64,000 bases of DNA from the NCBI GenBank assembly GCA_046483495.1, contig JAWODC010000044.1, positions 96,001 to 160,000 of the forward strand, written 5' to 3'. The position numbers were made by a program, and so were the translations under genes. Numbering within the stretch: position 1 is the stretch's first letter; each line of letters opens with the position of its first letter. Shown here in pieces: positions 49,055 through 51,022 of this stretch. The notes under the pieces were generated by a model. The model made no database searches, was not told the DNA's origin, and saw nothing but the letters and a program-made list of their open reading frames with translations. This DNA comes from Desulfobacterales bacterium. GTDB taxonomy: Bacteria; Desulfobacterota; Desulfobacteria; Desulfobacterales; UBA5616.

Positions 49055-49783
49055 TTAACGTTTGTTTTTACGGGCTGCTGTCGTTTTCTTTTCGGCATAG
49101 TGGATTACAGCTTTTAGAAGCGATGCGCTGTGTCCGATTTGACGGTAAGCCTCGGCTTTGGATATCAGCCTGTTTTCATTTTCGAGTTCGGCTCCCTTTC
49201 TAATCGACAGATTTGCAATCCGGGCGATGTGCGCCGCCACATCCTTTTCCGAATCGAGTGAAATCGGATAAATCGCTATCTTGTCGAGATGTTTCAAGAC
49301 ATCGGCATTGATGCGGCCGTCGGTGAGGGAATGGCATCTTTTGTTGTACGCGTTATATTCGGTGTTGTGAAGGGGCTGCGACAGGTCTCCGATGTAATGC
49401 GCGCAAAACGCCATGTGATTTTCCGGGTATTCACCACGGGAGGCCTCCTCGATATACGTTCTCAAAGAACCGAGGATGGCACCGTAAAGATGCCCTGAAA
49501 ACGTGAGTTTATCATATTTTTCAGCCTGCTCGAACACCATTTCGGTCGTAATGACACGGTCATGGGGATTGGCCGAATAATGGTTTAACGACTCGCGTCT
49601 TCCGGCTTTTACTTTCACCAGGTCCGCCGCGGCGGCATTGTACCACTTTTTGTAGCCGGCCGCCTTGGCAATGGCGATATGCGTTTCATCATACCACGCT
49701 CCGGCAAGGTCCGGCAGCCACAGCAGAGGGAGAAACAGCAACAAAACGGTTGCACGAGACGCTGAAGCAACGATTTTTTTCAT
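49055..49783 (-). CDS. Secreted zinc-dependent phospholipase C / S1-P1 nuclease fold protein
   Basis: Signal peptide then W..ETH (mature N-terminal Trp), HYIGDLSQPLH and H...D. Confidence 0.78.
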   Translation of the reverse strand: MKKIVASASRATVLLLFLPLLWLPDLAGAWYDETHIAIAKAAGYKKWYNAAAADLVKVKAGRRESLNHYSANPHDRVITTEMVFEQAEKYDKLTFSGHLYGAILGSLRTYIEEASRGEYPENHMAFCAHYIGDLSQPLHNTEYNAYNKRCHSLTDGRINADVLKHLDKIAIYPISLDSEKDVAAHIARIANLSIRKGAELENENRLISKAEAYRQIGHSASLLKAVIHYAEKKTTAARKNKR

Positions 49784-49795
49784 TCGGTAATGCGG

Positions 49796-50506
49796 TTATC
49801 CTTCCATTTCGGGCAGCCAAAAGGGACCGGTTTTCCCGATCTCCTGGAGCCTCGGGATAAAGCCCATCATGTATTCGGATAAATGTGAGAAGTAATCCGG
49901 ATCCAGCCTTCGTTTAAAAAAGTCCAACGAAAAAAGGGCAATGAGATCGGTAAGCGGGACGATACCGTCACGGGTGGACGGATCGAATTGGGCCCAATTG
50001 TTTAAATGTTCTTCCGACCGGAAGAAATGCATGGTGCTTCAGGCATACGGCATCTTCGCCATCCACTCCGGAAACGGCACCGATACATGCCCGATGATCT
50101 CCGCCGGTTGGGCGTCCTGCAGAACACCATCTTTCATTTCCACGTGAATGGGTTCACCGCAATCCAGGCAGGGAGAATCGATTTCGATCGTTTTTCCGGG
50201 GTACAGCCAGCTGACCGCCAGCGATTCGAACGCTCATTGTGCGAACCATTTCCGCTCCCCATCGATGGTGACGCTATACGGCGTCGGAAGGTTGTTGAAC
50301 GGCGCAAACGATACGATGATATCGGTTTCCGGGTAAAGCCATCCCGGAATGCCGCTGTTGAATAATTCGTGAAGGGTTTTGCGGCCTTCTTCAACGGAAA
50401 CCCCCAATTCCCGGGCAATTTCCGTATAGTGCGGTGCAACGCCCGTTTCCATCATTTTTTTTATGATGAAATGGAAGGTCCTGTTCAGGGTGGCGACATC
50501 ACTCAT
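49796..50506 (-). CDS. MerB (organomercurial lyase)-like selenoprotein with two in-frame TGA (Sec91, Sec156), 236 aa
   Basis: SD AAGGAGG and ATG at 50506. One frame reads ...KWFAQ-U-AFESLAVSWLYPGKTIEIDSPCLDCGEPIHVEM...MPYA-U-STMHFFRSEEHLNNW...; TGA at 50234-50236 and 50039-50041. Confidence 0.85.
50009..50026 (-). promoter_or_regulatory. Candidate bacterial SECIS for the second UGA
   Basis: UUCUUCC-GGUC-GGAAGAA, a perfect 7-bp stem starting 12 nt after the UGA. Confidence 0.7.
50206..50222 (-). promoter_or_regulatory. Candidate bacterial SECIS for the first UGA
   Basis: GCUGGC-GGUCA-GCUGGC, a 6-bp stem (two G-U pairs) starting 11 nt after the UGA. Confidence 0.5.
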
Positions 50507-51022
50507 GGCGGCACCTCCTTGGGTCAAATTATGGGATTGAAGTGACGTTCATTTCCGTCACGATGACGGGGCGGCATCGGCTTTTTCAGTTGTCGGTGTT
50601 CGAAGAACATGAATCCCGGTGTGATCGCAGCTGCCACAGGTTCTGGCTGCTAATTTCCTTAACACGTCGAATACAATTTCTCAATCACATTGTGCCGAAA
50701 ATGAAAAAAACAGCCGAATTGACTGTCTCTATCCGGGAATGAGAAAATTCGCTCCAATTCAAGCCGGCCGGGAAATCTTAACGCAGGAATACGTTGCTTT
50801 TTTTTTGAGGCTTAAAATTTCCGGACAACAAGGAAACGGATTGAACCAGCCATTTTGGAAGGAATCTTACTATCTTTTAAAGTTACTTTTAGTAATTTTA
50901 AGATAATTTTTTGCGATTTATATTTAAATATTGACAATAAACATTTTTTATGTCGGTTCGGTCTGTATCATCGGGCCGAAAGGTCTCCGGACAAGTCAGC
51001 CGGTTGCGTCAGAAAATTCGGC

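Follow-up and report, generated by a model that had tools for sequence, protein, structure and literature searches.

The described systems closest to the gene reported here are the organometal lyase MerB and the MerB-fold selenoprotein SaoL. MerB holds R-Hg with a pair of thiolates and protonates the carbon through Asp99, to which protonated Cys159 hands its proton, and Asp99 is essential, the activity of a natural Ser variant being much reduced (as described in parts of PMC10114901); the canonical signature is Cys96, Asp99, Cys117 and Cys159, and MerB encoded without MerA is common (parts of PMC8261052). SaoL, in the bioRxiv text of Haft and Gwadz (10.1101/2022.07.06.499078), carries a single selenocysteine (Sec) at the Cys159 site, within a CU motif, retains Cys and Asp at the first of the two sites, and belongs to a nine-gene SAO locus; the authors also report that no selenoprotein of MerB type was found in a mer operon. 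SaoL with its one Sec is the only MerB entry in the table of a 2026 review (PMC13188914), and the accessible parts of a 2022 review and of the deep-Sep supplement hold only single-Sec sequences of MerB type. Anoxic demethylation by sulfate reducers is described as having no identified enzyme or pathway and as perhaps partly abiotic (section 10 of PMC10114901; the enzyme gap also appears in the parts of PMC8261052 available).

The stretch of DNA analysed here (the window) is 64,000 nucleotides long and comes from a Desulfobacterales bacterium (contig JAWODC010000044.1 of assembly GCA_046483495.1). On its minus strand a frame of 236 codons runs from an ATG at 50506 to a TAA at 49798–49796, with in-frame TGA at codons 91 and 156 and no further stop. 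It is one intact open reading frame of a kind that gene callers usually fragment, and a plain ORF list breaks it into pieces of 97 and 78 amino acids, as the first-pass annotation of this DNA had expected when it read through both TGAs to a 236-residue product with a good Shine-Dalgarno sequence. The 64 codons between the two UGAs place the recoded positions 65 residues apart, compared with 63 for the corresponding cysteines of MerB, also as first described. The features of the gene are as follows.

49796..50506, minus strand: whole gene, predicted MerB-fold double selenoprotein of 236 amino acids (ATG to TAA; PF03243 match)
50514..50520, minus strand: Shine-Dalgarno-like AAGGAGG, 7 nt 5' of the ATG (read from the sequence)
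50306..50506, minus strand: N-terminal winged-helix domain, about residues 1–67, as in MerB (model helices 4–21, 27–34 and 38–49)
49937..50293, minus strand: MerB catalytic domain, residues 72–190 (PF03243 match)
50234..50236, minus strand: UGA codon 91, predicted Sec at the MerB Cys96 position (TGA conserved in relatives)
50225..50227, minus strand: Glu94 at the position of MerB Asp99, the proton donor (alignment)
50206..50222, minus strand: SECIS-like hairpin 1, 6 pairs (2 of them G-U) and a 5-nt loop, 12–28 nt after the first UGA (consensus fold)
50159..50170, minus strand: Cys113-x-x-Cys116 knuckle, with Cys113 at the structural Cys117 of MerB (alignment to MerB)
50039..50041, minus strand: UGA codon 156, predicted Sec at the MerB Cys159 position, the site shared with the Sec of SaoL
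50009..50026, minus strand: SECIS-like hairpin 2, 7 pairs and a 4-nt GGUC loop, 13–30 nt after the second UGA (consensus fold)

Contigs from public sequencing runs show TGA, not TGC or TGT, at these codons. One from DNA run X1 spans 49835–50602 with 0 differences from the window; this support is not independent, since X1 may be the source sample. A contig from RNA run X6, which belongs to another study, spans 50167–50317 with 0 differences and bridges the first UGA, and a contig from X3 (50033–50253, 0 differences) holds both UGAs and is not counted as bridging them because they lie too close to its ends. The RNA-library contigs of X3 and X6 reach a depth of 2–5 over parts of the gene; such contigs are no proof of transcription, and DNA may contaminate a library. 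X2 does not cover the gene, and a promoter and terminator scan at the gene gave counts at chance level. Upstream, at 50701–50800, lies an intergenic repeat of about 70 nt with 77 blastn matches in the genome, relatives of which are present at high depth in an RNA library.

The window genome (96.7% complete) contains selA, selB and selD above their cut-offs together with a tRNA-Sec, and its selD has an in-frame TGA of its own. Among 40 carrier genomes checked, selA is present in 36, and the four without a match are 75–99% complete. The recoded columns were then compared among relatives. In 46 genome loci, the window included, which range from 39 to 100% identity to the window protein, column 91 is TGA in all 46 and column 156 in 45, so that the double UGA occurs in 45 of 46 loci, those other than the window being 39–81% identical to it. 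(This count leaves out L007 and L008, which are the same genes as L010 and L011, the fragments L075, L076 and L078, and 21 distant loci, L041–L060 and L077.) In metagenome loci, taking the best 80 of at least 562 matches, 79 are TGA/TGA and one is TGT/TGA, column 156 being TGA and Glu94 being retained in all 80. A search of 400 sampled genomes of the phylum gave 55 matches besides the window's own; the double-UGA form is present in 37 of the 400 (about 9%), and 2 of 5 further genomes from the window genome's family have it too. Several carriers have two copies, and the window genome has a single PF03243 match. A plasmid search returned only distant Cys-type matches of less than 60% identity.

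Called proteins in the databases give a complementary picture. Among the best 120 of 299 database proteins, 84 have Cys at column 91, 81 of which end just short of column 156; one is Cys/Cys, and 34 have Trp at both columns. The relatives thus carry UGA or Cys at these columns, apart from the Trp/Trp records (full-length records P0152–P0187, some of them named alkylmercury lyase), which come from contigs of about 2.5 kb at most and fall into 90% clusters together with fragments of 90 and 73–77 amino acids. Because the contigs are short and the records cluster with fragments that end or start at the UGAs, we infer that gene callers made these records by code-4 miscalling. One locus of the 46, L035 in genome G330, has a Val codon at the second UGA, Gln for Glu94 and a stop near its start; it keeps both hairpins in a genome with selA, and is apparently a decayed member.

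A putative SECIS element follows each UGA. The loop begins about 17–18 nt from the UGA in hairpin 1 and about 19–20 nt in hairpin 2, the consensus energies are -8.3 and -9.1, respectively, and both hairpins agree with the bacterial SECIS model in loop size, in the G close to the beginning of the loop and in spacing (as given in the parts of PMC13188914 available). The pairs of hairpin 1 are kept in 45–46 of 46 loci, with one two-sided change; over both hairpins together pairs are kept in 39–46 of 45–46 loci, with two-sided changes at three positions, and those in hairpin 2 replace T-A by C-G in the outer pair and T-A by G-C in the pair beside it. Synonymous codons are frozen here: among pairs of loci with the same residue, codon identity is 0.99 at Ser95 and 0.90 at Leu96 in hairpin 1, and 1.0 at codons 161–164 in hairpin 2 (of which 161, 163 and 164 are four- or six-fold degenerate), whereas 109 other four- or six-fold codons measured in the same way average 0.34 and reach 0.78 at most. 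Single-sequence folding against shuffles is no better than chance for hairpin 1 (z +0.34) and modestly better for hairpin 2 (z -2.05). A near-identical hairpin 2, with a C-G to T-A swap, occurs in a separate double-UGA family (below).

Might the two UGAs instead be nonsense mutations in a pseudogene, sequencing errors, or Trp codons? The Trp/Trp records (34 of the best 120 of 299 database proteins), the decayed look of L035 and the absence of a single-sequence folding signal for hairpin 1 can be cited for such a reading. Against it, the double UGA is conserved down to 39% identity, Cys alternates with UGA at both columns, and selA accompanies the gene in most carriers checked; the Trp/Trp records themselves fit code-4 miscalls. 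TGA is the commonest stop of the window genome (903 of 2168 long open frames), so its code is not one in which UGA means Trp. Selection is not relaxed beyond the UGAs either, since dN/dS is 0.05–0.29 in the segments after each UGA where it could be computed (7 pairs), values similar to that of the first segment except in one nearly identical pair. From UGA conservation, dN/dS and TGA stop usage the pseudogene and UGA=Trp readings were rejected, and we regard an artefact of any of these kinds as very improbable. The gene thus has selA, selB, selC and selD in its genome, UGAs that are conserved and aligned with Cys of homologues, and SECIS-like hairpins after them, and SelB almost certainly reads both UGAs as Sec to give a 236-residue double selenoprotein. 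To this extent the earlier proposal of Sec at both MerB ligand sites is strongly supported by machinery, conservation and hairpins alike.

The fold is that of MerB. The translation with TGA as Sec matches PF03243 (Pfam MerB) at 88.9 bits against a cut-off of 27, which bears out the first-pass assignment, and falls below the canonical MerB models NF033555 (44.5 against 200 bits) and NF009710 (49.8 against 193 bits). An AlphaFold model with Cys in place of Sec has a pLDDT of 95.6 and superimposes on MerB2 with Z 17.6 and an rmsd of 3.3 over 191 aligned residues, and on MerB with Z of about 16; the best unrelated row has Z 4.5. Residues 1–67 match LexA-type winged helix-turn-helix (wHTH) domains with Z 4–4.5, and the protein matches MerB over its whole length. 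Alignment to solved MerB and MerB2 (phmmer) and to plasmid MerB puts the columns in register, Sec91 with Cys96, Glu94 with Asp99, Cys113 with Cys117 and Sec156 with Cys159, so both TGAs lie on MerB Cys positions as first proposed. In place of the canonical signature the window protein would therefore present Sec91, Glu94, Cys113 and Sec156. The change from Asp99 to Glu94, which the first-pass annotation did not mention, is a property of the family: Glu is found at this column in 44 of 46 genome loci and in 119 of the best 120 of 299 database proteins. In 42 full-length loci the conservation of Cys113 and of Cys116 is 95% or more. The pocket also has invariant residues unlike those of MerB, Gln90 for Trp95 and Ser66, Pro69, Phe70 and Asn72, and this rebuilding suggests a specific, more polar ligand. 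In sum, the window protein shares with MerB (PF03243; 3F0O, 3F2F, 1S6L) and MerB2 (5C17) the two-domain fold over about 190 residues at 19–23% identity, and differs in the predicted Sec of both its ligand positions, in Glu and Gln where MerB has Asp99 and Trp95, in the CxxC knuckle, in a C-terminal helical extension and in the lack of a mer operon.

SaoL is the known precedent for Sec in this fold, and any novelty rests on the architecture with two, as the first-pass annotation had supposed. The two proteins have in common the MerB fold, Sec at the Cys159 position and occurrence in anaerobes, and the function of SaoL is likewise an inferred one in the accessible part of its description (10.1101/2022.07.06.499078). 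The window protein differs in having two predicted Sec, Ala before the second (so that the CU motif is absent), Glu94 and no conserved locus. It scores 48.6 bits with the SaoL model NF040728 against a cut-off of 140, three other loci of the phylum pass this model at 148–175 bits, and no Sao model of NCBIfam matches among the 8 neighbouring window proteins.

The sampled genomes contain a second double-UGA MerB-like family (L164–L188, for example L057:199-834 on the plus strand), of about 210 amino acids, in which Asp99 is kept; no published description of it turned up in the literature searched. UGA stands at both ligand columns in all 25 of its loci, it is present in 25 of the 400 sampled genomes, and both double-UGA families occur together in 10 of the 37 carriers; it was not found in the window genome. 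This Asp-type family resembles the Glu-type family of the window protein in its UGAs at both ligand columns and in a nearly identical hairpin after the second, and differs from it in being only about 20% identical, in having another hairpin after the first UGA and in lacking the C-terminal extension. A quick tree of 82 rows and a careful tree of 34 rows, used for AU tests on groups named after the first tree, place the Glu-type group on a single branch (support 100/100) within which Sec/Sec, Cys/truncated and Cys/Cys members are intermixed. A joint clade of the Glu-type and Asp-type double-UGA families is rejected (p-AU 0.010), as is a joint clade with the three SaoL loci (p-AU 0.009). On the simplest reading of this unrooted tree, Sec was gained at the Cys96 site at least two times.

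Several related genes lie outside these groups. L054:2015-2644 (minus strand, genome G115) is MerB-like and has a double UGA, with Gly where MerB has Asp99; it belongs to neither family. In genome G385 a distantly related MerB-like gene has UGA at the Cys159 site (L161:3762-6951 and L055:1987-2637), and downstream of it on its strand come a merT/ferredoxin/metal-binding fusion and a merA above cut-off; this gene is a probable selenoprotein in a mer-like operon, and its position upstream of the merT-domain gene and merA places a UGA at the Cys159 site in a mer-like context. The loci L042–L046 and L050 carry Cys/Cys Glu-type MerB-like genes of about 290 amino acids, and in 6 of 7 loci the same flavodoxin-like gene lies directly upstream, with which they may form a two-gene unit.

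The window gene is flanked by a DUF169 gene and by an S1/P1-nuclease-like gene whose Pfam match is below cut-off, and no mer or sao match was found among eight window neighbours. The nuclease-like gene (49055–49783, minus strand) begins 13 nt past the stop codon, has an N-terminal hydrophobic stretch and is absent from the recurrent neighbour clusters. A scan of 86 immediate neighbours, and of the 25 clusters that recur most often around 126 loci, gave no mer gene, and these 126 loci (flanks of 1.5–6 kb) share no conserved operon, no neighbour occurring in more than 10 of them. The clustering took in 61 second-nearest ORFs, part of which were also scanned with Pfam. The commonest are ComEC-like (10), adenosine-kinase-like (9) and DUF169 (7) genes, mostly from one set of related loci. 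DUF169 was not adopted as a partner; it is upstream in 7 of the 126 loci and has 3 copies in the window genome. With three candidates scored per genome, merA exceeds its cut-off in 16 of the 400 sampled genomes, and among the 37 carriers in 1; the best candidate of the window genome reaches 395.8 against 454.45 and is without the C-terminal Cys pair. Since MerB without MerA is common, a merA partner is not a strict indicator. hgcA occurs in 20 of 37 carriers and in 101 of 363 other genomes (nominal p 0.002, uncorrected for kinship and genome size), an enrichment that is weak because neither is controlled. The window genome has dsrA and no hgcA above cut-off. The first-pass annotation had called the protein a double-Sec organometallic lyase; the double Sec stands, and "lyase" is a proposal only, in view of Glu for Asp99 and Gln for Trp, further weakened by the absence of mer neighbours and of merA from the window genome and from 36 of 37 carriers.

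What, then, might the protein do? We tentatively favor the reading, held at a little under even chances, that it is a bis-selenolate organometal lyase, MerB-like and acting without a mer operon. The selenolates of Sec91 and Sec156 would clamp a soft metal or metalloid that has a carbon ligand, this two-fold coordination would loosen the metal-carbon bond, and Glu94 would pass on a water-derived proton and so free the hydrocarbon; the inorganic ion would be removed by cytoplasmic sulfide or thiols, not by MerA, and selenium might let the site rival bisulfide for substrate in a sulfate reducer. About half of that already cautious expectation falls to methylmercury as the substrate in the cell, and the remainder to other organometals or organometalloids. 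The reading is favored by the MerB geometry and register with a carboxylate retained, by the G385 UGA gene in its mer-like context, by the greater frequency of hgcA in carriers and the presence of dsrA, by the commonness of MerB without MerA and by the lack of an enzyme for anoxic demethylation. Two selenolates would bind tighter than thiolates, mercury so held may be hard to release, and a selenolate would be poor at proton transfer of the Cys159 type. This problem of product release and the loss of the Cys159 proton relay count against a lyase, as do the change from Asp99 to Glu, the rebuilt pocket, the absence of mer context, the lack of merA and hgcA above cut-off in the window genome, and the two copies or second double-UGA family (the latter in 10 of 37 carriers), a large investment for a trace compound.

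The same absence of mer context would suit an enzyme that uses its selenol pair for redox or nucleophilic chemistry on the MerB scaffold, the selenolates cycling with a diselenide while a non-metal bond (S-S, C-S, C-Se, S-O or C-halogen) is cleaved or reduced, Glu94 serving as the acid and a thioredoxin- or flavodoxin-like protein performing re-reduction. We consider this possible, at odds somewhat below those of the lyase. Characterized selenoproteins are mostly oxidoreductases (section 7 of PMC13188914, in the part available), a thiol-peroxidase-like redoxin lies directly upstream in 4 of 126 loci, a C_GCAxxG_C_C/CCG/FAD-oxidase cluster adjoins 5 of 126, the flavodoxin-like gene precedes the sister Cys/Cys Glu-type loci (6 of 7, above), and a distant Cys homologue in Sphingomonas sits beside genes of CoA metabolism and not of mer. 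These redox neighbors are, however, lineage-local and common in carrier genomes, none of them occurring in more than 10 of the 126 loci, and the characterized members of the MerB fold are organometal lyases.

A catalytic role of either kind would be unnecessary if the selenolates and Glu94 simply held a soft metal ion (Hg, Cu, Ag or As) in a binder, chaperone or sensor whose wHTH relays the ion or binds DNA. In MerB a single change at position 99 (D99S) makes a Cu(II) binder, and the fold is derived from a treble-clef zinc finger and is kin to the copper protein NosL (both from parts of PMC10114901). The conserved CxxC knuckle and wHTH agree with such a role; yet a carboxylate at the catalytic position and the invariant pocket residues are kept, no metal transporter or regulator recurs in the neighbor clusters scanned, and the wHTH is no sign of a regulator since MerB carries the same domain. 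We therefore think a non-catalytic function unlikely, and leave only a slight chance to functions outside all of these readings, among which the organometal lyase is the one we carry forward.

Sec in the MerB fold is already known, and Sec at both ligand sites with Glu as the acid and no operon is apparently uncatalogued. No paper naming a two-Sec MerB in its title or the start of its abstract was found, which does not establish absence from print; NCBIfam of June 2026 has no two-Sec MerB family with Glu, and a BSepDB supplement, whose text is possibly incomplete and may omit a family list, gave no match to MerB.

The genes described here would constitute a common selenoprotein family that recodes the two ligands of an already known active site, 65 codons apart, each with its own SECIS. 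Because of its Sec and Glu sites and its fragmented gene calls, mercury-gene surveys that demand Cys96, Asp99 and Cys159 in called proteins cannot see it. It is a concrete candidate for an enzyme that breaks down methylmercury in anoxic sediments independently of mer; should its role be another, it may represent new selenium chemistry on the MerB fold; in either case its natural Sec/Sec, Cys/Sec and Cys/Cys relatives permit direct comparison of what selenium contributes. An improbable and broader proposal is that at least two separately derived double-Sec MerB-fold families in anaerobic Desulfobacterota cleave methylmercury or another organometal without a mer operon and pass the metal to sulfide. 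If this were true, these families would have been overlooked by merB surveys because gene callers cut them into three fragments, and they would supply sulfate reducers with an enzyme for a demethylation that has so far gone unexplained.
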